DNA of 64,000 nucleotides from Nitrospirota bacterium (GCA_040758355.1 JBFLWF010000001.1:128001-192000); one strand, 5' to 3'. Numbered from the stretch's first letter, positions 3,500-63,811 are shown. Notes: a model not told the origin generated them from the letters alone. Translations and numbers: made by a program.

Positions 3500-3587
3500 A
3501 TGAGTATATGAGTATATGAGTATATGAGTATATGAGGTTTTTTAACCCATTTACTCATTCACCCATTTGCCCATTAACTCATTTGCC
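3500..3587. repeat. Two opposed octamer tandem arrays upstream of acs
   Basis: (ATGAGTAT)x4 at 3500-3536 and RCYCATTH x5 at 3545-3587. The arms are roughly reverse-complementary (ATGAGT/ACTCAT). Confidence 0.9.
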
Positions 3588-3602
3588 GCCTTAAAGTCCA
3601 TT

Positions 3603-3872
3603 TTATTTATAAGTCCCCGACCTTAAGATTATAACAAAGGCCAGACGGACTATTACAATCAAAATAATCGAGATCCATGGAATGCAGCTTTCCTTTGCAA
3701 AGGGTACAATCTTTCGTGTAATTTTGTAAACCGGTTCTGTAAATTTAATAAAAAATGCCATTATAAAGTTTTCCCTGTTAGCCCTAAAAAGCGACAAGAC
3801 AAGTCTTCCAACAATAAGCCACATGAAAAGGGCAAGGGTATAGTTAATTATCTGTATCAGCCATGCAATCAT
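3603..3872 (-). CDS. YggT-family small membrane protein
   Basis: 89 aa with two hydrophobic segments and a central N-F-I..F..KFTEPVY motif typical of YggT. Confidence 0.7.
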   Translation of the reverse strand: MIAWLIQIINYTLALFMWLIVGRLVLSLFRANRENFIMAFFIKFTEPVYKITRKIVPFAKESCIPWISIILIVIVRLAFVIILRSGTYK

Positions 3873-3894
3873 TTATCGCCCAAATATTCCTTTT

Positions 3895-3968
3895 TGGAGT
3901 ATTGGAGTGCTGGAGCAGTGTTTTGAATACAATGCTCCATCACTCCATTTATTTTACTCCAATGCTCC
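3895..3968. repeat. Opposed TGGAGTNN / NACTCCA octamer arrays at the actP 3' end
   Basis: TGGAGTAT TGGAGTGC TGGAGCAG, then CAATGCTC CATCACTC CATT, then TTACTCCAATGCTCC overlapping the last codons of actP (GALE*). Confidence 0.8.
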
Positions 3969-6227: not shown

Positions 6228-6296
6228 TTCTCCTCCTTCTCTGGTTTTTAATTTCAAATTTGAGATTTGAGATTTTTTGTTTTCACCTCCTCCCCC

Positions 6297-9889: not shown

Positions 9890-10950
9890 TCTTCTTCCTC
9901 GCTGATAACAAGTCCTTTAAGCTTTGTTGCGATGGAGGCCATATCGATCTTTCCGGGGCATGTTATGGTGCATCTTCCGCACCCAACACACCCGAAACCG
10001 CCCAGCGTTTCAGGATAATGGATCAGCTTGTGATAATACCACCTCTTTGTCCTTTTAACCATTATTTCATTGGGCAGAATACCTCCGGCCATCCGTGTAA
10101 ATCCCTTGAACATGCATGTATCCCACAGCCTTATCCTTTCAGTTCCTTCAGGATATGCCCTGTCTGTAACAGTAAAGCAGGTACAAAGGGGGCAATCGTA
10201 TACACAACCCCCGCATTCAAAGCACCTGCCGGCAACCCACTGCCAGAAGTCGTCCTTTACCTTTCCTGAAAGGATCATCTCCCTTATGCCTTCCAGGTTT
10301 ATTCTTTTATGGAACCTTGCCTTTGAGCTGAGAAAGGCTTCGTACTGATCTTCATAATCTGCTCTTTTAGGTTTTCTGAAAAGAAATGACATGGAGTTTA
10401 TTGTTTTTGCGCCTTCAGGAGAGCCTATCTGCACAAAGTACCTGTCTCCGAGGTCTGTCATCTGTACGTCAAACCCCTTTTCTAAATAGGGGCCTGTCCC
10501 GAGTCCCATGCAGAAGCATGTGGGGTCAGGATCGTTGCATACAATGGATATGAAAAGGGTATTCCTTCTTCTTTCTGCATAATAAGGGTCTTTATGGCCT
10601 TCGAGATAGAATTTATCTAAGAGTGCGAGTGCAGAGATGTCGCATGACCTTACGCCGAATATGACCCGTTTTGTTCTATCTGTCAGATCAACTACTTCTT
10701 GACCTTTGTCCCTTGCCCCTTGACTCTGTTCTTTATATTCGAGCATTGGCTCGTATTGAGGGAAAAGGAATTCCTTTGGCGATGGCAGTGATGATGGACA
10801 GTCAAGAACAATCTCGTGTATCTTATCAACACCTTTAAAGACAATATCATTACCGCCATTCATCAAAGGCCCGATAAGCTCCCTGTTCTTCCTGAGCTGT
10901 CTGAGCCAATAGGAGAGGTTGTTTTTGTCAAGAATTAACTCATTCTTCAT
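9886..10950 (-). CDS. 4Fe-4S dicluster subunit, AsrA/HydB-like
   Basis: FGVRSCD, C..P.PTCFC, CFECGGCVYDCPLCTC and CVGCGRCTITCP. Confidence 0.88.
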   Translation of the reverse strand: MKNELILDKNNLSYWLRQLRKNRELIGPLMNGGNDIVFKGVDKIHEIVLDCPSSLPSPKEFLFPQYEPMLEYKEQSQGARDKGQEVVDLTDRTKRVIFGVRSCDISALALLDKFYLEGHKDPYYAERRRNTLFISIVCNDPDPTCFCMGLGTGPYLEKGFDVQMTDLGDRYFVQIGSPEGAKTINSMSFLFRKPKRADYEDQYEAFLSSKARFHKRINLEGIREMILSGKVKDDFWQWVAGRCFECGGCVYDCPLCTCFTVTDRAYPEGTERIRLWDTCMFKGFTRMAGGILPNEIMVKRTKRWYYHKLIHYPETLGGFGCVGCGRCTITCPGKIDMASIATKLKGLVISEEEE

Positions 10951-21183: not shown

Positions 21184-21227
21184 ATCTGTTTTTCAGGCTA
21201 AAGGCAAACGGTAAATGAGTATAAACT

Positions 21228-21413
21228 CTAAACTCTAAGCTTAGCTTTTTTGTCTTCAGTTCTGTAGACTGCAAATGCTATAAGGATTATAAAAATGAGC
21301 CAGAAGGCGAATAGGTATTCGGCCACATCGGTGTGGAATATCTCCAGCAATGGCCAGTTAAGGCCAAGGAGACCGAGGATGAATATGAATATCCAGACTT
21401 CTGTATTTTTCAT
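21228..21413 (-). CDS. Small two-TM protein upstream of the sensor kinase
   Basis: 61-aa hydrophobic ORF with an LNWPLL motif; starts immediately after the gyrA stop. Confidence 0.6.
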   Translation of the reverse strand: MKNTEVWIFIFILGLLGLNWPLLEIFHTDVAEYLFAFWLIFIILIAFAVYRTEDKKAKLRV

Positions 21414-30505: not shown

Positions 30506-33500
30506 TCAATTCAGATTTGCTGCTTCGGTGAATTGTAGCGAGATTGCCTTTGACACACCCGGCTCTTCCATTGTAATGCCGTAGAGATAATCCGCAACCT
30601 CCATAGTTGTCCTGTTATGAGTAATAACGATAAACTGCGTCTCTTTGGAAAGCTCCTTTATCATCTGAGCGAATCGAACAGTGTTGGATTCGTCCAGCGG
30701 TGCGTCTGCCTCGTCGAGGACGCAGAGGGGGCTCGGCTTTATCAAGAATCCTGCAAACAAAAGGGCTAGGGAGGTCAATGCCTTTTCCCCGCCTGAAAGC
30801 AGATTGATGTTCTGGAGCTTCTTGCCCGGTGGTTGGGCTATTATGTCCAGGCCTGATTCGAGAATATTCTCTTCATCTGTAAGAATGATGTCCGCTCTTC
30901 CTCCTCCGAAAAGGGTAGTGAAGACCTCAGTGAATTTCGTCCTTAATGAATCATAAGCCTCTCGGAGTTTTCGTCTCGTTGTTGTGTTTATCCTGCTTAT
31001 TGCCTCTTCCAGTTCGGCAATGGACATGGTCAGGTCCTGCTGCTGTTTTGTCAGGAAGTCGTAGCGGTTTTTGAGTTCTTCGTATTCTTCGATAGTGCCT
31101 AAGTTTACAGGCCCGAGTTCCCGTATTTTGGTGTTGAGCTCATCGATTTTATTTTCATCTTCTGCTGCATCAAACCCTTCTATCTCTATCACCTCGGTCT
31201 TTATATCGAGCCCGTATTTCTGGTTTATGGATGTTTCGATATTCTCTATCCTGAGCCTGTTTTCCACTGCCTTTGAATTAAGGTCGGAAAGCTGCTGGGA
31301 TATCTCGTCTATCTGCGCCCTGATATTTCTGAGGATATTGCCCTTTGAGACTATTTCTTGATTTTCCGAGCTAATCGTATCCCTTAACTTTGTCCGCTCG
31401 ACCTGCATGTTGTCGACATCCATGACTATTGATTTTATTTCCTCTTCGAGTTTCTGGAGTTCTGCGGTCGATTCTTTTATTCTTTCATCTGCATCCTGAA
31501 TTTCCTTTATTGCCTGTTCCTTTTTATTTTCAAACTCTCCGATGGCATCACTGATTGCATCCCTTTCCCTTCTGAGTGCATCTATTTTTTCCCTGTATGA
31601 GGTCATAGAGAGCTTTAATTCGGTGAGGTGAGACCGGGCATCTTCGTAATCTCCTTTTATAGTCGAAAGTGATTCCTGCAGTGCTGCTATGCTGTTGTTG
31701 ACTTCGTTAAGCTCGCCTTCGAGCCCGCCGATTTCCTCTGTTTTGGACTGCAGAATACCATCCAGAGAGCCCATTTCCTGAGAGATAGTCGTTATTTCAG
31801 TATTCAGGAAGGAGAGCCTCCTTGTCTTCCTATCCATTTCCTCCTGATGACTTTTCAGGGAGTGTTCTATAAGTGATAGCTGTTTTTCTGTCTCGTTGAT
31901 CGAATCCTCGGTATTCTTTAGAGATTCTTTTTTGTTTGTTAGATCATTGCTGTGAGAGTCGAGCATTGCCTCCATGTTTTTTATTCTAAGCTGCTGCTCA
32001 TCGATTGTCTGTTGGAGTTCTTTTATCTCTCTTTTCCTTTTCAGGATATCCTTCCCGTGTCCTGCAAACAACCACCCGTCGCTGGTTATAATCTCCCCAT
32101 CGAGGGTAACGAGATGAACGGGATGGGTGAATGGGCGAATGGGCGAATGGGTGAAAAGGATTCCCATAGCAGTTTGTAAGTCTTTTACTATATAGGTAGT
32201 GTCTGTTATGCCAAATACCTTTTCCTTGACTTCGTTATCCTCGAATGTTGCAAAGTCTGATGCCTTGCCAATAATGTTGTCATGAGTAATATTTGCTGTC
32301 GTCTGTCCTTTGTCCTCTGTCGTCTGACTTCTGTCGTCTGTCCTCTGTCCTCTGTATAATATGGCTGTCCTTCCAAGATTCTTCTCTTTGACAATATCTA
32401 TTACCGAGATGGCGTCTTCGATATTATCTATTATCAGGGCATTGATTTTTTCTGAAAGGGCAGCCTCGATGGCCATTTCATAATCCTTATTTGCATTAAT
32501 GATATCGGACAGGACCCTGTATCCACGTCCTTCGGATACGAAGTCCGCGATGGATCTGTCCACGATTAATTCCTTTAATGAATTAAGCCTGGATATATTG
32601 GAGGCAAGGTCTTCTCTCTCTTGAGAAAGGAGCGTTTTTTTGCTTTCAATATCATCCTTTAACTGCGCTATCTCTGAGGTTATTGCGTCTTTTTCGGATT
32701 TAAGCCTCAGGATATCGTCTGTTTTTATCTTTATGGATTCCTCGGCTTCTCTAATGGCCTTTTCCAGTTCGTCCATACCTGCTTTTATAGTCTCTATATC
32801 CTTGAGGGCAACCGATTCCCGGTATTTCATGTTCTCAAGGGAAGACTGGAGCTTGTGGAACTCATTCTTTCTATTGCTGAGATTTTCGGATGCCTTGAAG
32901 ATCTCTTTTCTTTGATTTTCAATCTCGGATTCCTTGTCTGTAATCTTAGTCTCGATGTCCGCTATCCAGTCCTTCTTTTCGTTCAACTCCATGGATATGT
33001 TTTCTATGCTGGACAGCAGTGCGTTTTCTGTGTCGTCGAGTTCTGAAATCTTTCCTGAGAGTTCTTCTTTTTTATTCTTTATTTCTTCCTGCTGATTGGT
33101 AAGCCTGATGATATCCTCTTTTTTATTTTCGATGTTTGTTTTTAGCACCGCTATGTGTTTTTCGGAGTCCGATATAGACCGTTCTTTCTCGTGCAGGTTG
33201 TTTTCGAGTTCTGTCAGGGCCTTCTCTCTTTCTGCAAGCTCAAGGCGTTTGGTTTCTATGAGGTTTTCTAAGATGGAGAGTTCGCTCCTCTGAGAGGCAT
33301 CTATTTCCCTCAGTTTTTCGATCTCTGATAATATCTCGCTCAGAACCGTGCCGAGCCTTGTGTACTCTCTCTTTGCCGTTCTTAGTTCCACCTCTTTCAG
33401 CTCGCCTATCAATCTCTTGTATCGCTCGGCCTTTTTTACCTGCCTGTCGAGGCTGTTTATCTGGCGTTTTACTTCATATACAATGTCGTTTATCCTCTGT

Positions 33501-38945: not shown

Positions 38946-40385
38946 ATGAAAAACCATCCAAGGCTGGTCATTGCCGGAGTCAGAGGCGGCAGCGGAAAAA
39001 CAACCCTCTCCCTCGGCATAATTGCTGCGTTAAGATCCCGGAAAGGTCTGAAGGTCATTCCATTTAAAAAAGGCCCTGATTTCATAGATGCAGGATGGAT
39101 GTCTGTTGCTGCAAAGAACCCATGCTATAATCTCGACCCTTTTCTTATATCGAAGGAAAAGGTTCTGGAATCCTTCATATCACATTTTACTGGCGACATA
39201 GCAATTATAGAAGGCAACAGGGGATTATATGATGGCATGGATACAGAAGGCTCATACAGCACTGCAGAACTGTCAAAGCTTCTAAAATCCTCTGTCATAC
39301 TGATTGTTGACTGCACAAAGATGACGAGGACAGCAGCAGCCGTGGTATTGGGCTGCATGAATCTCGACAGGGATGTCAACATAAAGGGTGTTGTTTTAAA
39401 TCAGGTGGCAGGCAGCCGTCATGAATCAGTGGTGCGCTCATCCATAGAAAAGCATTGCTCATTGCCTGTGCTCGGTGCGATACCGAGATTGAATTCAGGA
39501 GAGTTCCCCGAGCGCCATATGGGCTTAACACCATACCAGGAGCATCATGACACAGGGAATGCACTTTCATTCGTGGAAGACATAGCAAATAAATATCTTG
39601 ACCTTGACAGGATTTTGAGCATAGCAATGGAAGCAGAACCGATAAATAACAGGCACGAGGCTATAGGCTATAGGCAAAAGGCAAAAACCGAAATGCAGGA
39701 TGTAAGTTCCTCATTGCCCATGGCCCATAGCCTATCGCCTGCCGTAAGGATTGGAGTAATAAGGGACTCTGCTTTCCAGTTTTATTATCCTGAAAATATC
39801 GAAGAGCTTGAAAAAAACGGTGCAGAGATTATTGAGGTAAACGCCCTTGAGGATGATCGCCTGCCTGATATCGATGCCCTTTACATAGGAGGAGGCTTCC
39901 CTGAGACAAATGCCATAAGGCTTGCAGAAAATGAAGACTTCAGGGACTCTGTTCTCAATTCAGCAGAAAAGGGTCTTCCCATTTATGCAGAGTGCGGAGG
40001 ACTTATGTTTTTGGGAGACTCCATTATAGTTGACGGCAGGAAATATCCTATGGTAGGTATTTTCCCAATAACCTTTGAAATGAAGAAAAAACCACAAGCG
40101 CATGGCTACACAATCGTTGAAGTAGAAAAAGAGAACCCATTTTATCCTGTAGGAACAGTGCTGCACGGACATGAGTTTCATTATTCTGCTGTTGCCAGCA
40201 TATCAGAAAACGACAGTGCATTTACAGCCTTTAGAATGAAGAGGGGGCATGGCATAAAGAATAAAATGGACGGGATATGTTATAAGAATGTCTTTGCAAC
40301 TTATACGCATATACATGCCCTCGGTGCGGAAGAATGGGTGAGAGGACTTATAAATAAGGCAAAGGAGTTCAAGAAGGCAAAATGA
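38946..40385 (+). CDS. dsrN: DsrN siroheme amidase (CbiA/CobB paralogue)
   Basis: GGSGKTT, KKGPDFID, EGNRGLYDG, YAECGG and GHEFHYS. It sits in the dsr cluster while a separate cbiA lies in the cob cluster. Confidence 0.85.
   Translation: MKNHPRLVIAGVRGGSGKTTLSLGIIAALRSRKGLKVIPFKKGPDFIDAGWMSVAAKNPCYNLDPFLISKEKVLESFISHFTGDIAIIEGNRGLYDGMDTEGSYSTAELSKLLKSSVILIVDCTKMTRTAAAVVLGCMNLDRDVNIKGVVLNQVAGSRHESVVRSSIEKHCSLPVLGAIPRLNSGEFPERHMGLTPYQEHHDTGNALSFVEDIANKYLDLDRILSIAMEAEPINNRHEAIGYRQKAKTEMQDVSSSLPMAHSLSPAVRIGVIRDSAFQFYYPENIEELEKNGAEIIEVNALEDDRLPDIDALYIGGGFPETNAIRLAENEDFRDSVLNSAEKGLPIYAECGGLMFLGDSIIVDGRKYPMVGIFPITFEMKKKPQAHGYTIVEVEKENPFYPVGTVLHGHEFHYSAVASISENDSAFTAFRMKRGHGIKNKMDGICYKNVFATYTHIHALGAEEWVRGLINKAKEFKKAK
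39651..39740. repeat. Opposed heptamer arrays in the DsrN interdomain linker
   Basis: AGGCACG AGGCTAT AGGCTAT AGGCAAA AGGCAAA ... ATTGCCC ATGGCCC ATAGCCT ATCGCCT, in frame. Confidence 0.88.
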
Positions 40386-45244: not shown

Positions 45245-45643
45245 ATGTATAATGGCGGGAAAATTTTAATAGGGATAATCATCTTTGTGCTTTTTGCAAC
45301 ATTCCCCTTTTACAATAATGCAGGCAAGGTCAGCGCAAAACCCGAGCCTAAACTGGATACCCCTGTTATTCAGCAATTGGCTGAAAAGAAGTGCGTGGAG
45401 CCAAAGGAATTTATGAAGGCAGAACATATGCAGTTGTTGGATGACTGGAGGGATTCTGCCATCCGGGAAGGCAAGAGGGTATATATAAACTCAGAGGGCA
45501 AGGAGTTCAGGATAAGTCTTCAGAATACATGTATGAACTGCCATTCCAACAAGAAGGAGTTTTGCGATAAGTGCCACAACTATGCAGCAGTAAAACCTTA
45601 CTGCTGGACCTGTCATATCGAGCCAAAGGAGAAACAGTTATGA
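45245..45643 (+). CDS. dsrJ: DsrJ triheme cytochrome c
   Basis: Start MYNGGK after a GGAGG RBS; HMQLLDDWRD, CMNCH, CDKCH and CWTCH. Confidence 0.95.
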   Translation: MYNGGKILIGIIIFVLFATFPFYNNAGKVSAKPEPKLDTPVIQQLAEKKCVEPKEFMKAEHMQLLDDWRDSAIREGKRVYINSEGKEFRISLQNTCMNCHSNKKEFCDKCHNYAAVKPYCWTCHIEPKEKQL

Positions 45644-51625: not shown

Positions 51626-52858
51626 CTATATTTTTAATAGTATATATAAAATTTTGTCTACCTCGTCTATGAGCTTCTTAAATAACCCTCCATGACTCTT
51701 TGAGTTTCCAAAAAGCTCTGTCCGCATTTCCTGTATTTCAGGGTCATCACACTTTTCGTATGTAATATGCCCGTTCTGCATTGCATATCTTTCTAAAATC
51801 AAGAGTCGTTTTGCATTTTCTATAAATGGCATTAACAATTCTTTTATTTTGTTTAAATCTGACTGCTGACTGCTGACTGCTGACTGCTGTTTTTTAATTA
51901 TTTCCGCAATCTCTTTTATCATGGCGTATAATGTGCAGTATTCGAGTCCCCTTACTCCCCTCCGCCACTGCAAAAGCATGGGATTTCTCCAGAACCAGAG
52001 AAAGTTGCGAGTGCCGAGTGATATTAAATCATCGACTGCTGATTCAAGGTCGGCAAGAATAGATGGAGCAATGGAGTAATAGAGTGATGAGTTAAGTTTC
52101 TGGGCTTCTTCTGACTTTTGACCGGAGAGGTATTCCCAGAGATTTTTTAAAACCCTTGCTCCGTTTGTGTCGTCTGGTGTATCAAAGTGTATTAATGATA
52201 AAATTACTTTGCCTTTTCCGAAACTTCCCTCCACCACTGAAGGCGCATCTTTTAATCTCCGGGGATTCAGATTGATTTTATAAATATCTTCCAATTCCGA
52301 CCAGCCGCCGTTGGCTTCCACATCTCCTACATTCAAATCCGAACTGAACGAGTCGGAAAGTGCATCTCCATAAGTGGCGAGTATTTTTATGGGCGTATCA
52401 TCGACTAAAAATTGTGAAGGCCACCATGCGTGAAAGATAGCTGATGGAGTGATGGAGTGATGGAGTGATGAGTTCCATATAGGATGTCCATTTACATTCA
52501 GATGAATACGGCCGCTGAAGCTCGGCACCCTCTGTTTTGTGGGCATCCTGTTTATATTTAAAAGCCCTATACCATCAAGCGTTGCAAGGCCTGCTCCTCC
52601 GCAGAAACCCAAATAATTACCGCCGCTATTCACAAAATTCTTTATTTCGCCGATGCCCTTTTCACCGAGGGTTTTCATCTTATTCGATGCCCATCCACCG
52701 GGCACAAAGAGCATCCTGTAATTTTTTAGTTCTCCTTTCTTTATATCATCTGAACGGATAAGTTCAAAAGAAAGATTACAGGCCTTCAGAGCCTTATATG
52801 ACATCAATCCCCAAAGAAACGATTCGTCCCATAGAAAAGCAATTGTTTTATTTACCAT
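51626..52858 (-). CDS. BPL-N-like class I glutamine amidotransferase-fold protein
   Basis: LFVPGG, GGNYLGFCGGAG and GKGKVILSLIHFD. Confidence 0.7.
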   Translation of the reverse strand: MVNKTIAFLWDESFLWGLMSYKALKACNLSFELIRSDDIKKGELKNYRMLFVPGGWASNKMKTLGEKGIGEIKNFVNSGGNYLGFCGGAGLATLDGIGLLNINRMPTKQRVPSFSGRIHLNVNGHPIWNSSLHHSITPSAIFHAWWPSQFLVDDTPIKILATYGDALSDSFSSDLNVGDVEANGGWSELEDIYKINLNPRRLKDAPSVVEGSFGKGKVILSLIHFDTPDDTNGARVLKNLWEYLSGQKSEEAQKLNSSLYYSIAPSILADLESAVDDLISLGTRNFLWFWRNPMLLQWRRGVRGLEYCTLYAMIKEIAEIIKKQQSAVSSQQSDLNKIKELLMPFIENAKRLLILERYAMQNGHITYEKCDDPEIQEMRTELFGNSKSHGGLFKKLIDEVDKILYILLKI

Positions 52859-54696
52859 TACTCCAGCACTCCATTACTCCACTTTTTTTCATAACCCCTC
52901 GGTGTAATCATATAGTTATTCAATGTAAATGTCTGAGAGTTTCCTATTATCACTGTTGTCTGCATGTCGATCTCGTAATTGAGCATGTCCCTCAGATTTG
53001 CGATAATAATCCTTTCATTTTCTCTCGTTGCACCCTTTACTATGCCTACAGGTGTTTCGGTGCTCCGGTGTTTGAGGAATATAGCCCTTGCCTTATTGAT
53101 ATGCTCAGGCCTTCCCATGCTTTTGGGATTATAGAGGACTGTTACAAAATCAGACATCGCCGCTGCTGCAAGCCTTTTCTCAATCAATTCCCACGGTGTG
53201 AGTCTATCTGAAAGGCTTATTACTGCGAAATCATGCATGAGCGGCGCGCCGAGCCTTGCTGCGCAGGCATTCAGGGCAGATATACCGGGGATGACTTCTA
53301 CAGCGATGCGTGATGCATTACTTCCTTTTATCTCATTACGCATTACGGATAACGCATTACGGTCTTTAAGTATCTCAAACACCAGCCCTGCCATGGCATA
53401 TATTCCTGGGTCTCCGCCGCTTATGACAGAAACGGTTTTTCCAGACAGTGCAAGCTCAACTGCCTTTTTGCACCTGTCAATTTCCTGCGTCATGCCGGTG
53501 GATACAACCTCTTTGTCTTTGATCAGTTCCTGTATCAAATCGAGATATGTTCCGTATCCAACAATAACATCTGACTTTCTTATGGCATCCTGTGCATAGG
53601 GGGTTATATGTTCAATGCTTCCGGGCCCGGTGCCGACAATGTAAAGCTTTGGAGTGATGGAGTGCTGGAGTATTGGAGCAACTAATTCAGCAACTGCGAT
53701 TGTCACATTTCCGATTTTCTGCTTCGGAACAAGCAACTCCGAAGCGCCTGATGCAAGGAGCGCCGCAGGCTCTGAAACAGCATTTGCGCCTGTTGCCTTA
53801 AAGACTGCCTCTGATTTAGCCATGCCTTCAACTGAGTTTAGTTCTTCAGCCTTAAAGCCGGTAATTGTAAATCCATACCTTTGGGCGAATTTGATCAAGC
53901 CATCTTCTTTACACTTTATGTCAATAGTTGCGAGGGAGTGAATGGACAGAAACGAGAGATTATTATTTTTAAGTACAGCCTTGACTGCTCCTTCTATCTC
54001 TTCTTCTGATGTCCCACTGTTGCATCCGATGCCTACAATAAGATTTTTAGGGCGAAGATAAAGCTGTCCTTTTACGCGGCATGAGCCTGTCGAACATTCT
54101 GCGGATGAGCATTGAGGTTCTTTTAAATAAATATCTTTTTTATTTGTTATGATCGCATCTGCAAATCTGGGCTCGCTTACCTTGAGAAATTCATCAGGCA
54201 GAGATATTTCTATTTCTGAATATACGCGCAATGCGCCATTGTTAAGGTATCGCGTGGCAACATGCGGCATTATCTCCCAGTCTTCGATAGCGAGACTATT
54301 TTCTGATACCCATATATCTATCGCAGTCAGGTTATTTACATCGGATGCGGTTGTTATAATTGCTTCGCCTTTCAAAAAATTCGCAATCTCTTTTGCCAGT
54401 TTGTTTCCTCCGCCTAAATGTCCGCTTAAGAGGCTTATGGCATATTTCCCTTTTTCATCGAGAACAACAACTGCAGGATCTATTTTTTTGTCTTTTATTA
54501 AAGGCGCTATAGTCCTTACCACAATGCCTGTTGCCATGATAAATATGAGATTTTTGCATTCATTCCATATCTCAGGAACAACTTCTGATTTGAATTTTAA
54601 AATTTGAGTATCCTTATAAAGACTTTTAAGCCTTTCAGCGAGCTTCAATCCATTTTCTGTTATATAAAATATTGCGGTTTTATTTTCTATATTCAT
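52858..54696 (-). CDS. cbiGH: CbiG-CbiH fusion (cobalt-precorrin-5A hydrolase / precorrin-3B C17-methyltransferase)
   Basis: IMATGIVVR, DPAVVVLDE, SGHLGGGN, GIGC and VSEPAAL, followed by VGTGPG, SGGDPGIYAMAG, SLSDRLTPW and TPRGY. Confidence 0.9.
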   Translation of the reverse strand: MNIENKTAIFYITENGLKLAERLKSLYKDTQILKFKSEVVPEIWNECKNLIFIMATGIVVRTIAPLIKDKKIDPAVVVLDEKGKYAISLLSGHLGGGNKLAKEIANFLKGEAIITTASDVNNLTAIDIWVSENSLAIEDWEIMPHVATRYLNNGALRVYSEIEISLPDEFLKVSEPRFADAIITNKKDIYLKEPQCSSAECSTGSCRVKGQLYLRPKNLIVGIGCNSGTSEEEIEGAVKAVLKNNNLSFLSIHSLATIDIKCKEDGLIKFAQRYGFTITGFKAEELNSVEGMAKSEAVFKATGANAVSEPAALLASGASELLVPKQKIGNVTIAVAELVAPILQHSITPKLYIVGTGPGSIEHITPYAQDAIRKSDVIVGYGTYLDLIQELIKDKEVVSTGMTQEIDRCKKAVELALSGKTVSVISGGDPGIYAMAGLVFEILKDRNALSVMRNEIKGSNASRIAVEVIPGISALNACAARLGAPLMHDFAVISLSDRLTPWELIEKRLAAAAMSDFVTVLYNPKSMGRPEHINKARAIFLKHRSTETPVGIVKGATRENERIIIANLRDMLNYEIDMQTTVIIGNSQTFTLNNYMITPRGYEKKWSNGVLE

Positions 54697-55435: not shown

Positions 55436-56181
55436 TTCTTGATTATCACCACCGAAAAATAGTTGAGGTCGCCTTCCTTGATGTCCCTTATATTTTTGAA
55501 TATCTTTTCATCATCCATGCCTGCCCGTGAGACATAAACTGCATTATTCGTTAGATTCATTTCATTAAGAATAGTTAGAACCCTATCAAAGACCCTGTGA
55601 ACCTTCATGAGAACGATGGTGTCAAACCTCTCCAGAGTCTCTTTTATGTTATCAGTGTAGGTTGCAGGAAGGATGGCGATTTTTTCATCAGCAAGGCTTA
55701 AGGACAGGTTTGCCCTTGCTGCTGCGGTATTTATGGATGACACGCCCGGAATTATTTCTATACTGAGTTCAGGATTGAGTTCGAGGAGCTTGTCGTATAA
55801 ATAGAAAAATGTGCTGTAAATGGTGGGGTCTCCGATAGTTATGAAAGCCATATCAGTGCCTTTATTCAACCTGCTGTAAACCGTCTCGATTGTTTCCTGC
55901 CATTTGGTATCAAGCATGCATAAATCATTTTTTTCTTTCTGACCGCTGACTGCTGACTGCTGACTGCTTTTCGTTTTTCTCATGGGAAAATGTGCTTCGA
56001 TAATCTCTTTGCCGTCGAGATTCAATGCCTTTTCCACAATGGATAATGCCATGCTGCTGCCTTCTTCCCTTCCCTTTGGAACGCAGATGCATTGAACCTC
56101 TTTAAAGATTCTCACTGCCTTCAATGTCAACAGTTCAGGGTCTCCGGGACCGACTCCTATGACATAAAGTTTTCCTGTCAT
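55432..56181 (-). CDS. cbiL: Precorrin-2 C20-methyltransferase
   Basis: GVGPGDPELLTLKA, FPM, GDPTIYSTF, VLMK and YFS. Confidence 0.9.
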   Translation of the reverse strand: MTGKLYVIGVGPGDPELLTLKAVRIFKEVQCICVPKGREEGSSMALSIVEKALNLDGKEIIEAHFPMRKTKSSQQSAVSGQKEKNDLCMLDTKWQETIETVYSRLNKGTDMAFITIGDPTIYSTFFYLYDKLLELNPELSIEIIPGVSSINTAAARANLSLSLADEKIAILPATYTDNIKETLERFDTIVLMKVHRVFDRVLTILNEMNLTNNAVYVSRAGMDDEKIFKNIRDIKEGDLNYFSVVIIKK

Positions 56182-57458
56182 CTTTCACCTTTTATCACAA
56201 ATACTGGATTCAATGCGCTCATGTGTCTTTTGCCTGCTATATCCTTTGATCTCGATACGGATATCTCAGAGACTTCTGGCTCGAATCCATTGCTTTCAAG
56301 GTGTTGGATTGCCTCATTCAAAGTCTCTATGGTTGTGGCATTTATGACAATATGTTTGCAAGTCATGCTGGAGATAAAATCTATTATCTCTTTGAGTCTT
56401 CCGCTACTGCCGCCAACAAACACCCTGTCGGGAGATGGAAGGTTTATCAAGGCATCAGGGGCTTCACCGCTTATTATTTCAATATTAAGTGAGTTAAATC
56501 TCTCCTTATTTTCTCTGATATGGTTAATTTGTTCTTTGTCTTTTTCGACAGCAAAGACCTTCAATTCCGGATATAATCTTGCAGCCTCTATTGATACAGA
56601 GCCGGAGCCTGCGCCGATATCCCAGAATACGCCCCTTTGCGGAAGCCTTAATTTATGTATCGTCACCGCCCTTACTTCGTCTTTTGTTATCAGTCCTTTG
56701 GAGTGGGAAATCTCGGTCTCTTTTAATCCAAAGGCGGTAGCTGATGACTGACTGTTGATGGCTGACCGCTGAATTATTACCACATTCGGCTCTGAAAACG
56801 TCATTCCTGCAATCTCTTCAGGCGTGCCTTCTGTAATTTTCTCATCTTGGTAACCCAGCCTTTCGCAGACATACATAACAGGCAATAGGCTATGGGCAAT
56901 AGGCGATAGGTTAAGGATTTTGGCTATTTCTGAAGGATTGTTTTCTCTGTCTGTAAGTATGGCGACTTTATTATGTCTTTGCAGTAAAGATGGAATATCA
57001 TTTATCGTATACGGCAATCTTCTTCTCTTTTCCGGATCAGGACCTCCGTGAAGACTCATTAAAAATGCATCGTCCCACGGCTCTTTTATCCTTGAAAATG
57101 CAATCTGAACGCTCGATAAATCAGGCAATATCTCAACCATGTCTCTCCCAAATTCTTTAACTGCCCTTCTGCCTATTCCAAAGAACATCGGGTCTCCGGA
57201 GGCGAGAAGGACGACGGGGAATGATGGGGTGCTGGAGTGTTGGAGTAGTGAGTGAATGAATTCAATTGTCTCATTCACATTATTAATTACCTTTACCTTA
57301 TCTTTAACTGCCTCAAATTCATCATAGCCTTTAAAGACTTCAAAGAGTCTGTTGGATGCAAGGATAACGCCTGCACGGGAAATAATCTCCCGTGCTTTCT
57401 TATCAAGTGGCTTATAGCCAATGCCTATTACATAGAGTTTATTACTCATTATTGTCAT
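56178..57458 (-). CDS. cbiET: CbiE-CbiT fusion (precorrin-6Y methyltransferase/decarboxylase)
   Basis: LASGDPMFFGIG and CERLG, followed by ITKDEVR, WDIGAGSGSVSIE and NPVFVI. Confidence 0.92.
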   Translation of the reverse strand: MTIMSNKLYVIGIGYKPLDKKAREIISRAGVILASNRLFEVFKGYDEFEAVKDKVKVINNVNETIEFIHSLLQHSSTPSFPVVLLASGDPMFFGIGRRAVKEFGRDMVEILPDLSSVQIAFSRIKEPWDDAFLMSLHGGPDPEKRRRLPYTINDIPSLLQRHNKVAILTDRENNPSEIAKILNLSPIAHSLLPVMYVCERLGYQDEKITEGTPEEIAGMTFSEPNVVIIQRSAINSQSSATAFGLKETEISHSKGLITKDEVRAVTIHKLRLPQRGVFWDIGAGSGSVSIEAARLYPELKVFAVEKDKEQINHIRENKERFNSLNIEIISGEAPDALINLPSPDRVFVGGSSGRLKEIIDFISSMTCKHIVINATTIETLNEAIQHLESNGFEPEVSEISVSRSKDIAGKRHMSALNPVFVIKGER

Positions 57459-58221: not shown

Positions 58222-58248
58222 TTTATCCCCTTTTTGTCAGTCTATTTG

Positions 58249-58767
58249 TTAGTGTTCAATGCCCCTTCTCGCTTTTACGCCTTTTTTGTAGTAATGCTTT
58301 ATTTCCTTCATTTCCGTTACAAGGTCTGCCATTTCTATAATTTTCTCATCGGCATATCTGCCTGTAAGAACAACCTCCATGCCTGAAGGCCTGGAATTTA
58401 ACAAATCCACAATGTCTTCGACATTCAGGAGTTTGTAGTGCACTGCGACATTTATCTCATCCAGCACCACCAGGTCATAGGTTTTAGATGAAATTATGTT
58501 TTTCACCTCTTCAAATCCTTTTTGGGCTGCTTCGATCTCTGATTGCGTCGGCTTTTCGCCCTTTATAAATCCTGTCCCGTATTGTTTGACGGTAATCAGG
58601 TCTTTAAACCTATCCAGTGCCTTGTGCTCGCTGCATCTCCTTTTCTTAATAAACTGCGCAATGAATACTTTGAGTCCTGCGCCTGCTGCCCTCAATGCGA
58701 GACCAAGGGCTGCCGTAGTTTTTCCTTTGCTGTTGCCGGTGTAAACCTGTACGTACCCTTTACGCAT
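58249..58767 (-). CDS. cobO: Cob(I)yrinic acid a,c-diamide adenosyltransferase (BtuR/CobO)
   Basis: YTGNSKGKTTAA, QFIK, LDEIN, LTGR, ADLVTEM and GIE. Confidence 0.93.
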   Translation of the reverse strand: MRKGYVQVYTGNSKGKTTAALGLALRAAGAGLKVFIAQFIKKRRCSEHKALDRFKDLITVKQYGTGFIKGEKPTQSEIEAAQKGFEEVKNIISSKTYDLVVLDEINVAVHYKLLNVEDIVDLLNSRPSGMEVVLTGRYADEKIIEMADLVTEMKEIKHYYKKGVKARRGIEH

Positions 58768-59611
58768 ACAACCTCGCTATCTCTCTTCTTGCCTCGCCGA
58801 TGGTGAGAGGGATTCTCTCAAAGGGCATATTATCCTCATGCTTTAGCTTGTAAATTAGTTCCGCAATCTGTGGTAGCCTGAGTTTGACATTTGACATATC
58901 CTCCGGCGCTGTGAAGACATCCTCGGGAATGCCTCCCCTCGCAACACGACCCCTGCTTAAAATATAAAGCCTGTCGAGGAATAATGGGACAAGGTCAACG
59001 CTGTGTGTAGCCATGACAATGGTTACTCCATTTCCCTTGTTCAGCTTTGTGAGGAGATTCATCATTTTATACTCTCCCATGGGATCCAATCCTGCAGTGG
59101 GTTCATCAAGGAGCAGTATCTCATGCCCCATAGCAAGAAGCCCTGCAATGCACACCCTTTTCTTTTGCCCGAAGCTGAGGTTGTGAATGGACTTTTTTGC
59201 ATATCCATCCATCTCCACATATTTAAGGGCATTATTAACTCGACTGACAACCTCATTTTCTGAAAAGCCCATATTTATCGGCCCGAATGCCACATCTTCG
59301 AATACTGTTGCAGCAAAAAGCTGGTCGTCAGGGTTTTGAAAGACAAGACCAGCCTTTCTATATATCTCTTTTGGAGATAGTTTTTTAATATTAGCTCCAT
59401 CAAGGAGAATATTTCCCTCAAAGTCCTTAAGCAGTCCGTCCATTATCTTTAATAATGTTGTTTTCCCCGAACCGTTTGAACCCAGTATGCCGATGAATTC
59501 ACCCCTTTTTATCTCAAGGCTTATGTCAGACAGGGCTGTTGTCCCGTCAGGATATTTAAATGAATTAATATTTACAGATAGTCTTATCTGACTGCTTTTT
59601 ATATTTTCCAT
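58760..59611 (-). CDS. cbiO: Cobalt ECF transporter ATPase
   Basis: GSNGSGKTT, FQNPDDQLF, LSFGQKKRV and LDEPTAGLD. Confidence 0.92.
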   Translation of the reverse strand: MENIKSSQIRLSVNINSFKYPDGTTALSDISLEIKRGEFIGILGSNGSGKTTLLKIMDGLLKDFEGNILLDGANIKKLSPKEIYRKAGLVFQNPDDQLFAATVFEDVAFGPINMGFSENEVVSRVNNALKYVEMDGYAKKSIHNLSFGQKKRVCIAGLLAMGHEILLLDEPTAGLDPMGEYKMMNLLTKLNKGNGVTIVMATHSVDLVPLFLDRLYILSRGRVARGGIPEDVFTAPEDMSNVKLRLPQIAELIYKLKHEDNMPFERIPLTIGEARREIARLYA

Positions 59612-60366
59612 ATAAATCCCATTGCAGTTATGAATAGCGCCGAGACAATAACTTCAGCCGGTTTGAAGGGCTTATGCCTTAACATCGGGATATTTCCGTC
59701 ATAGCCCCTTTGAATCATTGACACTGTGATATTGTGGCTGTGCTCAAATGCCTTGAGCATCAGGGATCCGGCGAGGGTGCCGAATGAGCCGAGTCCACGC
59801 CTTATGTTTGAGTAACCGAGGCGATTTTTCTGTGCATTATAAATGACCATTGCATCCTCAAAGAGAACAAAAATATATCTATATGCAAACATCAATACCT
59901 CTATAAAACCTTTTGGAATTCTCAGCCATGAAAGTCCTGCGATAAATTCCGTAAACGGCGTAGAAAATCCCATTACAGCAACAATGGAGACCGCGCCCAG
60001 GATTCTGATTGCAATCATCAACCCATCCATAAGTCCGTCTTTATATCCTGTTAAAGTGAGAAGTGAGAAGTGAGAGGTAGGAAGCGAGATGGAGAAAAGC
60101 ACATCCTTCCCTGAAAAAAATAATTTCAGGAGGATTATTATCGATGCAATGAAGACCGGCTCTGAAAATCTTAATAAAAAGACCTTCAACGGTATTCTCA
60201 TCCACATGCAGAGAAAGAGGCATATTGATGTTACGAACAATGGAAGGGCAAAGCCCTTATAGCTCAAGACCATTACAAGAATGGCAAGGCTGACAAGTAT
60301 CTTTACCCTCGAATCGATCTTTGAAAGGATATGTTCTTTTTTGAAATATTCAGAAAATAGTTCCAT
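59599..60366 (-). CDS. cbiQ: Cobalt ECF transporter T component
   Basis: DSRVK, FAYRYIFVL, AQKNRLG and MIQRGY. Confidence 0.9.
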   Translation of the reverse strand: MELFSEYFKKEHILSKIDSRVKILVSLAILVMVLSYKGFALPLFVTSICLFLCMWMRIPLKVFLLRFSEPVFIASIIILLKLFFSGKDVLFSISLPTSHFSLLTLTGYKDGLMDGLMIAIRILGAVSIVAVMGFSTPFTEFIAGLSWLRIPKGFIEVLMFAYRYIFVLFEDAMVIYNAQKNRLGYSNIRRGLGSFGTLAGSLMLKAFEHSHNITVSMIQRGYDGNIPMLRHKPFKPAEVIVSALFITAMGFIWKI

Positions 60367-60370
60367 GCCT

Positions 60371-60697
60371 CTATTTGTTTCCTGTAACCTGTATTCTTGC
60401 TTCTGATTTCCGGCTTCTGCCCTCTGTCAGTGACCTCCAATAATATCCTGCTGCAAATCCTCCTACTGCACCTGCGAGGAGAAAGACAAAGAGCAGCAGG
60501 TCTCCCTGGTCTGTGTTTATCAATGGTTCTTTTGCCTCCCTGCCATGCTCCTTTGCGAATTTCTCTATTACGGATTCGTCAACGCCGGACCATTTGTCAG
60601 AGGCAAAAACAACAGTGAATAGTGAACAGTGAATAGCGAACAGTAAGAAAACAATCAAGAAAATTTGAAATTTGAAATTTGAAATTTGAAATCTCAT
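60371..60697 (-). CDS. cbiN: CbiN-like cobalt transporter accessory protein
   Basis: WSGVDESVIEK...DQGDLLLFVFLLAGAVGGFAAGYYWR; lies between cbiM and cbiQ. Confidence 0.7.
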   Translation of the reverse strand: MRFQISNFKFQIFLIVFLLFAIHCSLFTVVFASDKWSGVDESVIEKFAKEHGREAKEPLINTDQGDLLLFVFLLAGAVGGFAAGYYWRSLTEGRSRKSEARIQVTGNK

Positions 60698-61464
60698 GCT
60701 GTCACCTCCTCGGGCTTAAGGACACGCATCTTTACAAGAAGATCTGGACGCTTTTTATAAAGCAGTACAACCATTCCTGCTGTCATTGCACCCTCAAGGA
60801 TTCCGAGGGGTAGTTGTGTAGGTATGAATGCAATGAGTATCTTCCAGAAAAGCGGCATGAATGGAGAGTCTCCCTTTATGCCTGATGCAAGCTCAACCGA
60901 TGTGGTGAAGTATGTTGCCCAGTCTGCAAACAATCCTGCCATGAATCCCGAGATTGCCATGTTTATTTTCAGTGAGCGCAATGCCCTGAAGGTCAAGAAT
61001 CCTGCAAAGGAGCCCATTACGCCCATTGATACTATATCTGCGCCCCATGTGCTTAGACCTCCATGAGCAAGGAATAATGCCTGAATAAGCAATGCCACTG
61101 CCGTAATCAGTATGCTGATTGCCGGTCCTACAAGTATACCCGATATTCCTGTGCCGCAAGGGTGCGAGCATGTGCCTGCGGTCGGCACGGGTATGGGCAT
61201 GCACGAGATGATAAAAACAACTGCTGCCATGAGTCCCACAAGTGGTTTGAATGACAGGTCAATTGAAGATTGCTTTTTTAGTTTATACAATCCCCATGCT
61301 ACAAAGGGTGCTGCAACGACTGACCAGAATAATGCCCAGTTAAATGGCAATATGCCCTCTGAAATATGCATGGCGTGGGCATCAGAAACAGTAAACAGTG
61401 AATAGTGAATAGTGAATAGTGATAAAAAAATTTGAAATTTGAAATTTGAAATTTGAAATTTCAT
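60694..61464 (-). CDS. cbiM: Cobalt ECF transporter S component
   Basis: Signal peptide ending AHA, mature N-terminus MHISEG, SHPCGTG and AHGGLSTWGA. Confidence 0.92.
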   Translation of the reverse strand: MKFQISNFKFQIFLSLFTIHYSLFTVSDAHAMHISEGILPFNWALFWSVVAAPFVAWGLYKLKKQSSIDLSFKPLVGLMAAVVFIISCMPIPVPTAGTCSHPCGTGISGILVGPAISILITAVALLIQALFLAHGGLSTWGADIVSMGVMGSFAGFLTFRALRSLKINMAISGFMAGLFADWATYFTTSVELASGIKGDSPFMPLFWKILIAFIPTQLPLGILEGAMTAGMVVLLYKKRPDLLVKMRVLKPEEVTA

Positions 61465-62471
61465 AGTCCCTCCTTTGATATTTTTAATAATGCATTTATA
61501 ATTGCTACTGCCACTGGCGTGCCACCCTTTCTGCTTAAATTTGTTATAAACGGAAATTTCTGTGCTGCAAGCAGTGCCTTTGATTCCAATGCCTTGACAA
61601 AGCCAACAGGGACACCGACGACGAGAATGGGTGAATGGGTGAATAGGTGAATAGGTGAATTGAACATTTCGATAACTTTCAATAATGCGGTCGGCGCATT
61701 GCCTATAGCGATGATGCCTATATTGTTGTTTGCCTGCAATGCCTTTTTAATGGCTATTTCAGAACGGGTCTTGCCCGTGTCCTTTGAGAGCCTGACAACA
61801 TCTTCATCATTGATATTGCAGATAACCTTTCCGCCATATGGCTCAAGCCATCTTTTGATAATTCCAGTTTTTACCATTTCAACATCAGTAAGGATGTTCT
61901 TGCCTGCTTTTATAGCATCTATTCCTGTCCTTATGGCATCTGGATGGAACATGAGCGTATTCTTGAATTCAAAGTCGGCAGTGGAATGTATTACTCTTTT
62001 TATAATGGGCAGTTGCTCCGGCGGCATATCGCTTAAATCGGCCTCCTCAGAGATTATCTCAAAGCTCCTCTTCTCAATATCATGCGGTTTTAAACCATTT
62101 GCTGTATGTATCCTTTCCATCACCACATGCACCAATTTTTCGTGGATGCCGAGTGGCTCTGTGTAAATGAATTCCCTGTCAGGATACATATCTTTTGCCT
62201 CCTTTATTATCTCAGGGATATCCTTCGTGACATGCATGCCGCTGCTTAAAAAATAGGGATGGATGACTATCCTTTTGGCCCCGCTAAGAACACACTCCTT
62301 GATTGCGTCCGCAATCCCGGGCTCTGCAAACTGAAGGTATGCGACCTTTACACAGTTGTTGTTGCAGTTTGGATGAATTGCACTGTGCAGAAGCCTGCCT
62401 GTGAGTTCGATGTTGTTGGCGTCTTTTTTAGGACTTCCGTGTCCTATAAGTATTATGTTCTCCATTATCAC
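61461..62471 (-). CDS. cbiXC: CbiX (sirohydrochlorin cobaltochelatase)-CbiC (precorrin-8X methylmutase) fusion
   Basis: GHGS, AYLQFAEP and PYFLSSGMHV..DIP, followed by IEKRSFEII, RVIHSTAD, IGNAPTAL, PVGFV and RKGGT. Confidence 0.9.
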   Translation of the reverse strand: MIMENIILIGHGSPKKDANNIELTGRLLHSAIHPNCNNNCVKVAYLQFAEPGIADAIKECVLSGAKRIVIHPYFLSSGMHVTKDIPEIIKEAKDMYPDREFIYTEPLGIHEKLVHVVMERIHTANGLKPHDIEKRSFEIISEEADLSDMPPEQLPIIKRVIHSTADFEFKNTLMFHPDAIRTGIDAIKAGKNILTDVEMVKTGIIKRWLEPYGGKVICNINDEDVVRLSKDTGKTRSEIAIKKALQANNNIGIIAIGNAPTALLKVIEMFNSPIHLFTHSPILVVGVPVGFVKALESKALLAAQKFPFITNLSRKGGTPVAVAIINALLKISKEGL

Positions 62472-63811
62472 TCCTTTATAAAATTTATAAAAGTCTTTGC
62501 AATATTGCTATTGCTTCCAAAATGCAGATGCACATAGCTCGCAAGGGTATTTTCAATCCTGTATCCTTCGTTTTGAAGATCTTGGCCAGTATTATCAAAC
62601 AGTGAATAACAAGTAGTTAGGGCTGAAGGCTGAAGGCTGAAGGCTGAAGGCTTTATCTCCGAATAATGGAATTCATGTCCTCTCAGTTTGTCTCCTTTTT
62701 TGCCGTGTATGCAGTCATCGTTTAATATGACCTCTCTGTAGCCTAAATGAGATCGTCCATTTTTCATCTGTGTCTCGAAAGGAAATACACCGGCCATTTT
62801 GAAGAAATTACCATCACAATCATGAATTCCCCTTGACAGATACATTAAGCCTCCGCATTCGGCATACATTGGCTTTCCTGAGTCAGCCCAGTTATAAATG
62901 GCCTCAAGCATCGATTGGTTTTTTGATAGCTCCCCGGCATAAAGCTCTGGATAGCCGCCGCCGATGTATATGGCATCGGCTTCAGGGATAGCTTGATTAT
63001 AAAGAGGGCTGAATTTTATTATCTCCGCTCCGGCGTCTTTTAATAGGTCAAGATTGTCTTCATAATAAAAGCAGAAGGCTCTGTCGTAAGCGATGGCGAT
63101 TTTTGGAGCCGATGTCGGGGACAGTCCCGATTCTACGGCTGCGCCCGTAAATCTGGGACAGTCCCCTATGGCAAGAATCGCTTCTATATGCACATGCTTT
63201 AAAACCGCATCCGCAAGCCTTTCAATGTTCTCTCCGGCAATAGGATTTTCTTCTGCAACGGCTAATCCGAGATGTCTGTGCGGAATCTCGAAGTTCAAAT
63301 CCCTCGGCAGGTATCCTAAAACCTCAACACCACGAACACTATTTTTAAGCCTTTTGAAATGCCTTTCCGATGCCACCCGATTAAAGATTATGCCTTTAAT
63401 TAAATTTGGATTTTTGTATTCCATAAAGCCTTTCACAACTGCCCCTGCGCTTTCTGCCATGCCGTACGCATCGACAACCAGGATAACGGGCAGATTAAGC
63501 GCATCTGCCAATCTTGCCGTGCTGAAGTCTCCGTCATATAGGCCCATGACGCCTTCTACAACCGATATGTCAACACCTGTTGAGTGTTTATGAAAGCAGG
63601 CTTTCACGTAATCCTCGCCGCACATCCATAAATCGAGGTTTCTTGATGGTCTGCCGGTAATCATTCTGTGGAGTCCTGTGTCTATGAAGTCAGGGCCTGC
63701 CTTGAATGACTGAACAGCCATCCCCTTTTTCTTTAAGGCTGCAAGCACGCCTAAAGTAATCGTTGTCTTCCCGCAGCCGCTGTGTGTGCCTGCTATTACT
63801 ACCCCCGGCAT
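62468..63811 (-). CDS. cbiA: Cobyrinate a,c-diamide synthase
   Basis: SGCGKTT, GPDFID, EGVMGLYDG, RHLGL, YAECGG, GHEFHYS and YVHLHF. Confidence 0.93.
   Translation of the reverse strand: MPGVVIAGTHSGCGKTTITLGVLAALKKKGMAVQSFKAGPDFIDTGLHRMITGRPSRNLDLWMCGEDYVKACFHKHSTGVDISVVEGVMGLYDGDFSTARLADALNLPVILVVDAYGMAESAGAVVKGFMEYKNPNLIKGIIFNRVASERHFKRLKNSVRGVEVLGYLPRDLNFEIPHRHLGLAVAEENPIAGENIERLADAVLKHVHIEAILAIGDCPRFTGAAVESGLSPTSAPKIAIAYDRAFCFYYEDNLDLLKDAGAEIIKFSPLYNQAIPEADAIYIGGGYPELYAGELSKNQSMLEAIYNWADSGKPMYAECGGLMYLSRGIHDCDGNFFKMAGVFPFETQMKNGRSHLGYREVILNDDCIHGKKGDKLRGHEFHYSEIKPSAFSLQPSALTTCYSLFDNTGQDLQNEGYRIENTLASYVHLHFGSNSNIAKTFINFIKE
63117..63166. repeat. In-frame REP-like element in the CbiA linker
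   Basis: GGGGACAGTCCC-GATTCTACGG..CCGTAAATC-TGGGACAGTCCCC; encodes GDCPRFTGAAVESGLSP. Confidence 0.8.

Follow-up and report, generated by a model that had tools for sequence, protein, structure and literature searches.

Cyanobacteria carry dispersed heptamer repeats, the short tandemly repeated repetitive (STRR) sequences. In Xanthomonas and Nostoc, heptamer arrays most often have four units, form convergent pairs and lie at gene ends, and G-quadruplex or regulatory roles have been proposed for them; the available text of that study draws no link to four-helix-bundle (FHB) proteins, and its supplement places one array over the start codon of XCC0516, which is the solved FHB pentamer 2GSC (PMC4692102). 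For the heptamers of Beggiatoaceae, no mechanism is evident in the accessible part of the report (PMC4679880). A further system is formed by the 23S rRNA intervening sequences of Coxiella and Leptospira that bear an open reading frame (ORF): an S23p ORF lies in a stem loop, with tandem heptamers upstream of its start codon, and mobility is proposed but unexplained in the available text (PMC4990558). Here we analyse a stretch of 64,000 nt (the window; G000:C1:128001-192000) from the Nitrospirota bacterium assembly GCA_040758355.1 (G000), in which arrays of 7- and 8-bp units are written into proteins. These arrays, and those of the genome as a whole, are very probably the arms of cassettes built around an FHB gene (TIGR02436/PF05635, Avd-like, S23p).

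The G000 assembly is 2.77 Mb long, 99% complete and divided into 93 contigs. The window carries acs, gyrA, smc, dsrAB, dsrC, dsrMKJOP-like and cobalamin genes, which mark the host as a sulfate reducer; its gene content also points to the Nitrospirota. A first-pass annotation, made from the window sequence, had reported more than 20 arrays of 7/8-bp units. We found period 7 or 8 in 27 of 47 Tandem Repeats Finder (TRF) rows, and a scan seeded with units picked from the window data themselves, counting arrays of at least three units, gave 21 arrays (18 in ORFs) against none in three shuffles. Every unit family named in that annotation was located in the window, and its five named peptides were all present in the translations. 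Where it gives the units as always 7 or 8 bp long, 9-mer families also occur. Nor does every array stand in a protein: those at 3500-3584 and 21222-21242 are intergenic, and that at 6256-6276 lies at a gene junction. An Rfam search of the window gave no match.

Genome-wide, TRF (score of at least 40) detected 298 arrays of period 7 and 133 of period 8, where the shuffled genome gave 0 and 2; periods 5 and 6 gave only 1 and 14. Coding DNA of G000 holds 136 perfect 7-mer arrays (50 units, the commonest 38 times) and 19 perfect 8-mer arrays. Synonymous-codon resampling (three times) left 0-1 and 0 respectively, and codon-order shuffles (three times) left none, so that recurrence exceeds both shuffled and codon-matched controls. 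The recurrence of units at unlinked loci and in both orientations was also borne out, for example by the CAGCAGT family, which accounts for 41 of 297 7-mer arrays among the dozens of unit families in the genome. At a score of at least 36, a set of 573 arrays was obtained: 304 lie within crude gene calls, 87 extend over a gene end and 182 fall outside genes. This coding share is a minimum, since the crude calls place some starts wrongly and counted the leaders of cbiM and cbiN as non-coding. Array length is narrowly distributed (median 31 bp, 5-95% range 22-41), and heptamer copy number peaks at four units, with six or more in only 7 of 296 arrays. The STRR-type description (dispersed short 7-nt arrays, few copies, often convergent pairs), a descriptive definition drawn in part from PMC4692102, fits the G000 arrays.

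Close array pairs number 102 in G000, where about 8 are expected. The purine-rich array precedes the pyrimidine-rich one in 71 pairs and follows it in none, and 69 of the 102 are complementary, as against a mean of 14 (7-19) with shuffled partners. Such pairs thus present terminal inverted repeats, which solo arms lack. A PF05635 profile search gave six matches in G000 and none in the window, in line with the earlier statement that the window holds no TIGR02436-like gene. Elsewhere in G000, the link to that family, which the annotation had put forward, was confirmed by FHB genes bracketed by arms: five are standalone genes or fragments with inverted arms of 7/8-mers, and a TIGR04258 suffix fusion (L006:1450-2049; G000:C2:52792), the sixth, has 9-mer arms, the right one inside its own ORF. 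All five G000 FHB proteins submitted to TIGR02436 passed, with 33-126 bits against a cut-off of 24. Of the full-length FHB genes collected from relatives and by a genome scan, 86 of 139 are flanked by arrays on each side, compared with 49 of 2674 G000 genes; in viral contigs, 30 of 63 FHB genes are. The gene that shares the array ends is FHB and not any known transposase, and an insertion sequence (IS) enzyme acting in trans may take part. The flanks of FHB cassettes are protein-coding genes, not 23S or 16S rRNA genes.

A comparison of cassette sites between genomes revealed three states: loaded, empty and bare. At four sites (L065, L066, L072 and L099; carB-pfk, flgH-flgI, upstream of ugd and one further junction), the FHB cassette of a relative faces an empty pair of another unit in G000. 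At L048, L060, L069, L073, L077, L078, L089 and L091, it faces an array-free G000 junction. The cassettes at L047 and L059 split a methyltransferase-like gene that is continuous in G000 (C2:113412-113563), and their arms form the new ends of both pieces. Among 224 cassettes, a cognate one (at most two mismatches per arm) was found for 7 of the 12 units listed in the first-pass annotation, a count uncorrected for chance matches.

FHB genes whose arms are weak or direct stand between cas1 and cas4 at L081 and L088. L051 and L075 (G003:C1:1520320 and 1736797) are two equal-scoring FHB copies of one relative, each with an internal TAA, possibly duplicated within repeated operons. A GxxExxY (PD-(D/E)XK-like) gene at L277:1501-1839 (G000:C7:41192-41622) lies between inverted 9-mer arrays of the GATTACACA type, a parallel arm-gene-arm cassette with a nuclease-family gene.

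FHB subfamilies map onto unit families, and within one subfamily the protein covaries with its repeat. We analysed the subfamily with the loop EG[DE]E[RL]x[TSA] at 74 of 75 loci (one was dropped for having fewer than four informative bases, and L129, a duplicate of L106, was left out), a sample biased to relatives of one query. The residue after the loop is Asp with GGC units in 35/35 and Asn with GGT units in 35/36; on a tree built with that residue masked, the Asp/Asn label changes 12 times, at least five of these changes being forced by strongly supported branches. Arg versus Leu three residues earlier tracks another base (Arg with A in 42/42, Leu with C/T in 30/32). The two arms follow this code to the same degree, and G-U wobble is not favoured among mismatches of the transcribed strand (160 vs 190 in cassettes, 77 vs 86 in empty pairs). 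Selection of the arms as an RNA stem was rejected on the lack of wobble bias, and the two observations together favour a protein that reads DNA, or both strands.

The model of the L001 FHB (G000:C19; pLDDT 95.6) shows the four-helix fold of 2GSC, which it matches with a Z score of 19.9 and an rmsd of 1.1 Å over 112 residues; its match to Avd is lower (Z 14.5-14.9; unrelated bundles reach 13). In this model the two code residues, Arg58 and Asn61, map to the loop that joins helices 2 and 3 and to the beginning of helix 3. The solved homologues 2GSC and 2RLD are five-chain entries, and from these and PMC4990558 the FHB is probably a homopentamer. In the available text on Avd itself, all five protomers contact flipped-out bases, and equivalent residues of different protomers repeat the base contacts (10.1101/2023.10.23.563531). 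PF05635 is reported to resemble Avd and to occur in rRNA insertions in the accessible parts of two sources (PMC10053308, 10.1101/2024.02.27.582315). The G000 FHBs score 27-42 bits with the Avd family profile NF033474, below its cut-off of 80.

That the arrays are insertions, as first proposed, was established by orthologue alignment: repeat-free orthologues lack the peptides. Across 30 orthologues, the CbiL loop that holds SSQQSAVSGQ is short in some, including that of the same-genus G001, and in others is filled by arrays of unrelated families, either single or in inverted pairs. Other cob proteins show the same pattern across relatives, and CbiM leaders are made of different arm families in different relatives. 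Two observations bear out the proposed selection for an open frame. Among units with only one stop-free orientation, 182 internal arrays use that orientation and 13 the other; and internal coding length differences between G000 and a close relative, G002 (367 kb aligned at 89% identity), are multiples of 3 in 30 of the 30 listed. At 3' gene ends, arrays are purine-rich on the coding strand in 64/66, an orientation that often supplies stops. Several arrays may share one host protein: LeuS, Dxs and WaaA carry three each, MurD and FolC four each, and DnaG, ArgS and MurE two each.

Arms often build N-terminal leaders (L066, L078, L091; window 60611-61462), the purine-rich arm forming the charged part and the pyrimidine-rich arm the hydrophobic part. 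The array loops of the relatives' cob operons (L037-L045) also hold other palindromic inserts, whose peptides include PPLTKGG, KGTVPDLRT...VESGLSP and SFPLVGNLS.

Turnover was followed at the 88 G000 arrays covered in G002: 33 are unchanged there, 31 have given way to another unit, 2 have been rewritten within their family, and at 22 no array was detected. Around replaced sites, the median identity of the flanks runs from 0.67 at 0-20 bp through 0.80 at 20-40, 0.85 at 40-80 and 0.91 at 80-160 to 0.90 at 160-320, as compared with about 0.92 at unchanged sites. Because identity recovers within 40-80 bp and is back to normal beyond 80 bp, array replacement is a local change, and long recombination tracts are rejected as the source of the replaced arrays. 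Sites are also reused. With shared arrays excluded, a G002 array is present at 6/22 junctions with a G000 array versus 7/235 without, and in 23/39 coding tiles with a G000 array versus 7/3091 without; 40 coding tiles have indels yet no array. At present/absent sites, no clear target-site duplication was seen by eye, at a resolution limited by the 89% identity, and in bare sites the place of the insert is often taken by 2-20 bp of other sequence. The commonest unit family is a recent burst in G000: matches to its CAGCRRT pattern number 81 in G000, 14 in G002, 12 in G004, 8 in G001 and 0 in G003, and it is present in 17/61 genomes.

Slippage acts after insertion, trimming or extending arrays. 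Contigs assembled from four DNA sequencing runs break at arrays and yield strain-level indels only, and in one of them, from run X3, exactly three units are missing at 62621, an in-frame contraction in a near strain. Copy-number alleles of one unit, which mark a slippage microsatellite, were thus seen at one strain-level change, but 31/88 sites differ in unit. Since units are shared between loci, array length is narrow and whole units are replaced, slippage does not explain the arrays, and the view of the first-pass annotation that independent slippage is inadequate is upheld.

Taken together, we favour, at a probability of roughly 0.6, a selfish FHB cassette whose predicted pentamer reads its own arms and drives their insertion, with selection for frame following. 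The pentamer would bind the repeats with one unit per subunit, occupying four to five units, which would match the length cap. It may then carry arm DNA, single-stranded or as a hairpin, to breaks or to forks, with a preference for resident arrays. The writing of the two arms, or of one alone, would fall to host repair or template switching and not to a classical transposase, a little target sequence being lost, and new arms would land preferentially over older arrays. Selection would then keep stop-free, in-frame copies in tolerant loops, and slippage would afterwards only trim or extend them. Each horizontally arriving FHB of a different specificity may seed its own unit family, giving successive lineage-specific bursts, with phages as one probable carrier. 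The earlier proposal of templated or enzyme-mediated insertion followed by frame selection is thereby supported overall, its enzyme-mediated step by inference.

Several observations weigh against this cassette model. As regards the machinery, no inserting enzyme was identified, and no catalytic site is known for the FHB fold. Searches for reverse transcriptase (RT) gave no match in G000 (PF00078 and TIGR04416) or in G002, both of which are fragmented assemblies, and none of the 61 ORFs scanned beside FHB cassettes (34 loci, 108 ORFs extracted) matched a transposase, integrase or RT; Cas1/Cas4 stood at two loci, and 18 of these ORFs had no match at 1e-25. As regards the code, the independent-pairs test gave four concordant pairs, none discordant and one without difference (p=0.125, too few pairs), and the Arg/Leu correlation rests on only two tree changes. 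The anatomy is not uniform either: both arms are present in only 5/20 lower-scoring FHBs of the family, and arm sets are inverted in 67/82 and direct in 15/82. Donors are scarce. Five of the 12 units listed earlier have no good cognate among the 224 cassettes; no FHB was found at the window sites in relatives (upstream of acs, 30 loci; around cbiM, 30; cob, 39 loci); and the commonest unit family of G000 lacks an FHB in that genome, although one occurs for it at 2/80 metagenome loci with DNA, both of the EGCGR type. Long donor-identical arms among 140 candidate pairs comprise one pair of 63-67 nt (C3/C9), one 44-nt arm (C25) and one duplicate with flanks; two loci seldom share a long heterogeneous arm of identical sequence, so direct donor copying is not demonstrated. 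Lastly, part of the site memory is the permissiveness of the loops, which contributes to reuse because unrelated palindromic elements enter the same loops.

The 63-67 nt pair, heterogeneous and empty, stands alike at loci of G000 that are not related to each other, C3:97389-97444 and C9:20969-21032, and it is the clearest sign of whole-pair copying.

Retro-deposition in the manner of Avd is an unlikely alternative, though the strongest of those considered. Here the FHB pentamer would bind arm RNA and recruit an RT in trans, from the host, a phage or a diversity-generating retroelement (DGR), and short cDNA would overwrite resident arrays as in DGR retrohoming. The shared Avd fold and the weak NF033474 matches described above speak for it, as do the 30-90 bp patches replaced locally, which resemble retrohoming, and the RTs found in four of the five close relatives searched. 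Avd also acts with an RT on RNA in the available account (10.1101/2023.10.23.563531). On the other hand, the RT searches were negative in the very two genomes, albeit fragmented, where fast turnover was measured, no RT lies beside the scanned cassettes, and the absence of G-U wobble bias, with both arms obeying the code equally, does not suit an RNA substrate.

Slightly less probable still is the reading of the arrays as passive scars, in which an unrelated host or IS enzyme inserted whole cassettes, either into genes, splitting them, or at junctions, hairpin-driven deletion decays them, the FHB binds the arms to regulate its own RNA, and a small number of tolerated sites accounts for reuse. 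ORF-bearing 23S intervening sequences are processed as an RNA stem in the part of the literature at hand (PMC4990558), which would suit such regulation. The split methyltransferase-like gene in two relatives (L047, L059), the nested and partly deleted pairs that exist, and the other small palindromic elements in the same loops also agree with scars. Scars fit poorly, however, with the two to four internal arrays in each of LeuS, MurD, Dxs, DnaG, ArgS, MurE, WaaA and FolC: these genes are normally essential, so repeated gene-splitting intermediates are implausible. Nor do scars account for the 40 indel-tolerant coding tiles that lack an array, while 23/39 array tiles were re-occupied.

Ordinary long microsatellites, made and homogenised by slippage, with mutation bias and gene exchange among relatives behind the shared units, are very improbable and largely refuted: the three-unit contraction, the concerted one-base change in all units at 51859 and cob genes that look exchanged between genera agree with them, but the excess is restricted to periods 7-8, length is capped near five units, paired arrays show inversion, polarity and cognate units, the unit varies with a residue of a neighbouring protein, and flanks beyond 80 bp are no more diverged at replaced sites.

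The window arrays are listed in Table 1. The pair at 3500..3584 folds at -34.3 kcal/mol (z -8.6); it was not seen upstream of acs among the 29 relatives' loci listed, where gene order often differs. Adjacent arms are not always cognate, because the leader arm regions at 60600-60700 and 61380-61470 fold no better than shuffles. The dsrAB, dsrC and dsrMKJOP-like region (34254-47620) is nearly array-free, with one array in a CbiA/CobB-like gene, and the cob operon (51626-63811) is dense in arrays. A REP-like pair of GGGACAGTCCC motifs lies in frame in cbiA at window 63117-63170 (GDCPRFTGAAVESGLSP). The GGGACAGTCCC motif occurs 92 times in G000, and motifs related to it flank two RAYT-like Y1 transposase genes, at C10:9258 and C21:13013, the latter broken.

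Table 1. Tandem arrays of the window, with positions counted from its first nucleotide
Position	Strand	Array and host	Remark
3500..3584	no strand	Empty inverted pair of 8-mer arms, ATGAGTAT x4.6, 8-bp spacer, ACCCATTT-type x5	Upstream of acs
6256..6276	no strand	Short ATTTGAG/AAATTTG arm	Exonuclease-DUF4212 junction
10698..10725	-	CTTGNCC solo arm in 4Fe-4S protein, SQGARDKGQE	Unit-seeded scan
21222..21242	no strand	TAAACTC short arm	Between gyrA and histidine kinase gene
32121..32155	-	8-mer arm in smc, FTHSPIRPFTHP	Different array in G002
32296..32355	-	CTGTCCT-type array x8.6 in smc, RGQRTDDRSQTTEDKGQT	Unchanged in G002
39658..39686	+	AGGCTAT/AGGCAAA arm in CbiA/CobB-like gene, EAIGYRQKAK	Mostly deleted in G002, in frame
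51859..51889	-	CTGACTG arm in BPL_N-domain gene, QQSAVSSQQS	Every unit CTGACTT in G002
52063..52087	-	Degenerate 8-mer arm in BPL_N-domain gene, SLYYSIAPS	TRF and unit-seeded scan
52442..52470	-	TGGAGTGA arm, SLHHSITPS	Other families or none in relatives
52858..52881	-	8-mer arm forming C-terminus of cbiG/H, WSNGVLE-stop	Unit-seeded scan
53334..53361	-	CATTACG arm in cbiG/H, RNALSVMRNE	Unit-seeded scan
53649..53678	-	TTGGAGTG arm in CbiG-CbiH linker, APILQHSITP	TRF
55939..55968	-	CTGACTG arm in CbiL loop, SSQQSAVSGQ	29 relatives: loop without insert or with one of several further unit families
56880..56910	-	AGGCAAT-family arm in cbiE/T, LSPIAHSLLP	Unit-seeded scan
57225..57246	-	Short 8-mer arm in cbiE/T, LLQHSSTPS	TRF
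60054..60089	-	AAGTGAG arm in cbiQ, LPTSHFSLLT	Missing from more distant orthologues
60611..60695	-	Two arms (AAATTTG, AATAGTG families) forming N-terminal leader of cbiN-like gene	Unit-seeded scan
61386..61462	-	Two arms forming CbiM leader, MKFQISNFKFQ...FTIHYSLFT	Leader made of other families in relatives
61625..61660	-	GAATGGGT arm in cbiX/C, SPIHLFTHSP	ATTTGAG family instead in G002
62621..62655	-	GGCTGAA arm in cbiA, PSAFSLQPSA	21 nt (3 units) shorter in run X3 contig

If the cassette model is true, a function would be assigned to the very large S23p/TIGR02436 family, and a testable origin to bacterial heptamer repeats, for which no mechanism is given in the available texts of PMC4692102 and PMC4679880. 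A small programmable nucleic-acid-binding scaffold could follow from the Asn/Asp-to-base rule. In the G000 lineage, about 300 protein segments, among them N-terminal leaders and loops in LeuS, MurD and DnaG, are rewritten by the process more quickly than species diverge, which matters for protein evolution, for alignments and for the annotation of such genomes.

How these elements relate to those already described can be stated feature by feature. REP/RAYT systems combine repetitive extragenic palindromes with RAYT, an HUH transposase that acts on short palindromes. The G000 elements resemble them in having a small gene flanked by its own repeats and many dispersed gene-less copies, but the FHB has no HUH motif and the arms are tandem arrays; G000 also contains a RAYT-like gene that is flanked by a repeat of its own. 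With the Avd of DGRs (4DWL, 8UB7), the FHB shares the fold and, in solved homologues, the pentamer, but the G000 proteins fall below the Avd family cut-off and have no linked RT. The palindromic elements of Rickettsia (RPEs) are described, in the available text, as short non-autonomous repeats in frame in unrelated housekeeping proteins (PMC10969869). Like these and miniature inverted-repeat transposable elements, the G000 arrays enter housekeeping proteins in frame; unlike RPEs, which are conserved palindromes of about 150 bp, and the miniature elements, they are tandem and 20-100 bp long, their ends have no sequence in common, a clear target duplication was not seen and a partner transposase was not found. 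The heptamers of Xanthomonas, Nostoc, Beggiatoaceae and STRR type share the 7-mer units, the mode of four, the convergent pairs and the position at gene ends. These are, however, of one or few units per genome, mostly intergenic and with no origin proposed, whereas G000 has dozens of families, over half of its arrays coding, which replace one another.

The cassette anatomy is that of the ORF-bearing rRNA intervening sequences, with an FHB ORF between terminal inverted repeats and tandem heptamers. The G000 cassettes differ in lying between or inside protein-coding genes, and their ORF-less arms persist in hundreds and are translated; the available text of PMC4990558 does not tie the protein sequence to the repeat unit. 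We found no paper that joins FHB genes to tandem repeats in a literature search whose coverage excluded most subscription journals. No described family unites a repeat-reading FHB, hundreds of gene-less arms and the replacement of units inside proteins. In its widest form the proposal is tentative, at somewhat less than even odds: an undescribed class of mobile element without transposase or RT, in which a 115-residue pentamer would read its own 7-9-nt repeat by a one-residue-one-base code and write 30-bp arms over earlier arms, remaking loops and leader peptides of housekeeping proteins, and which would account for both the heptamer repeats of bacteria and the ORF-bearing rRNA intervening sequences.

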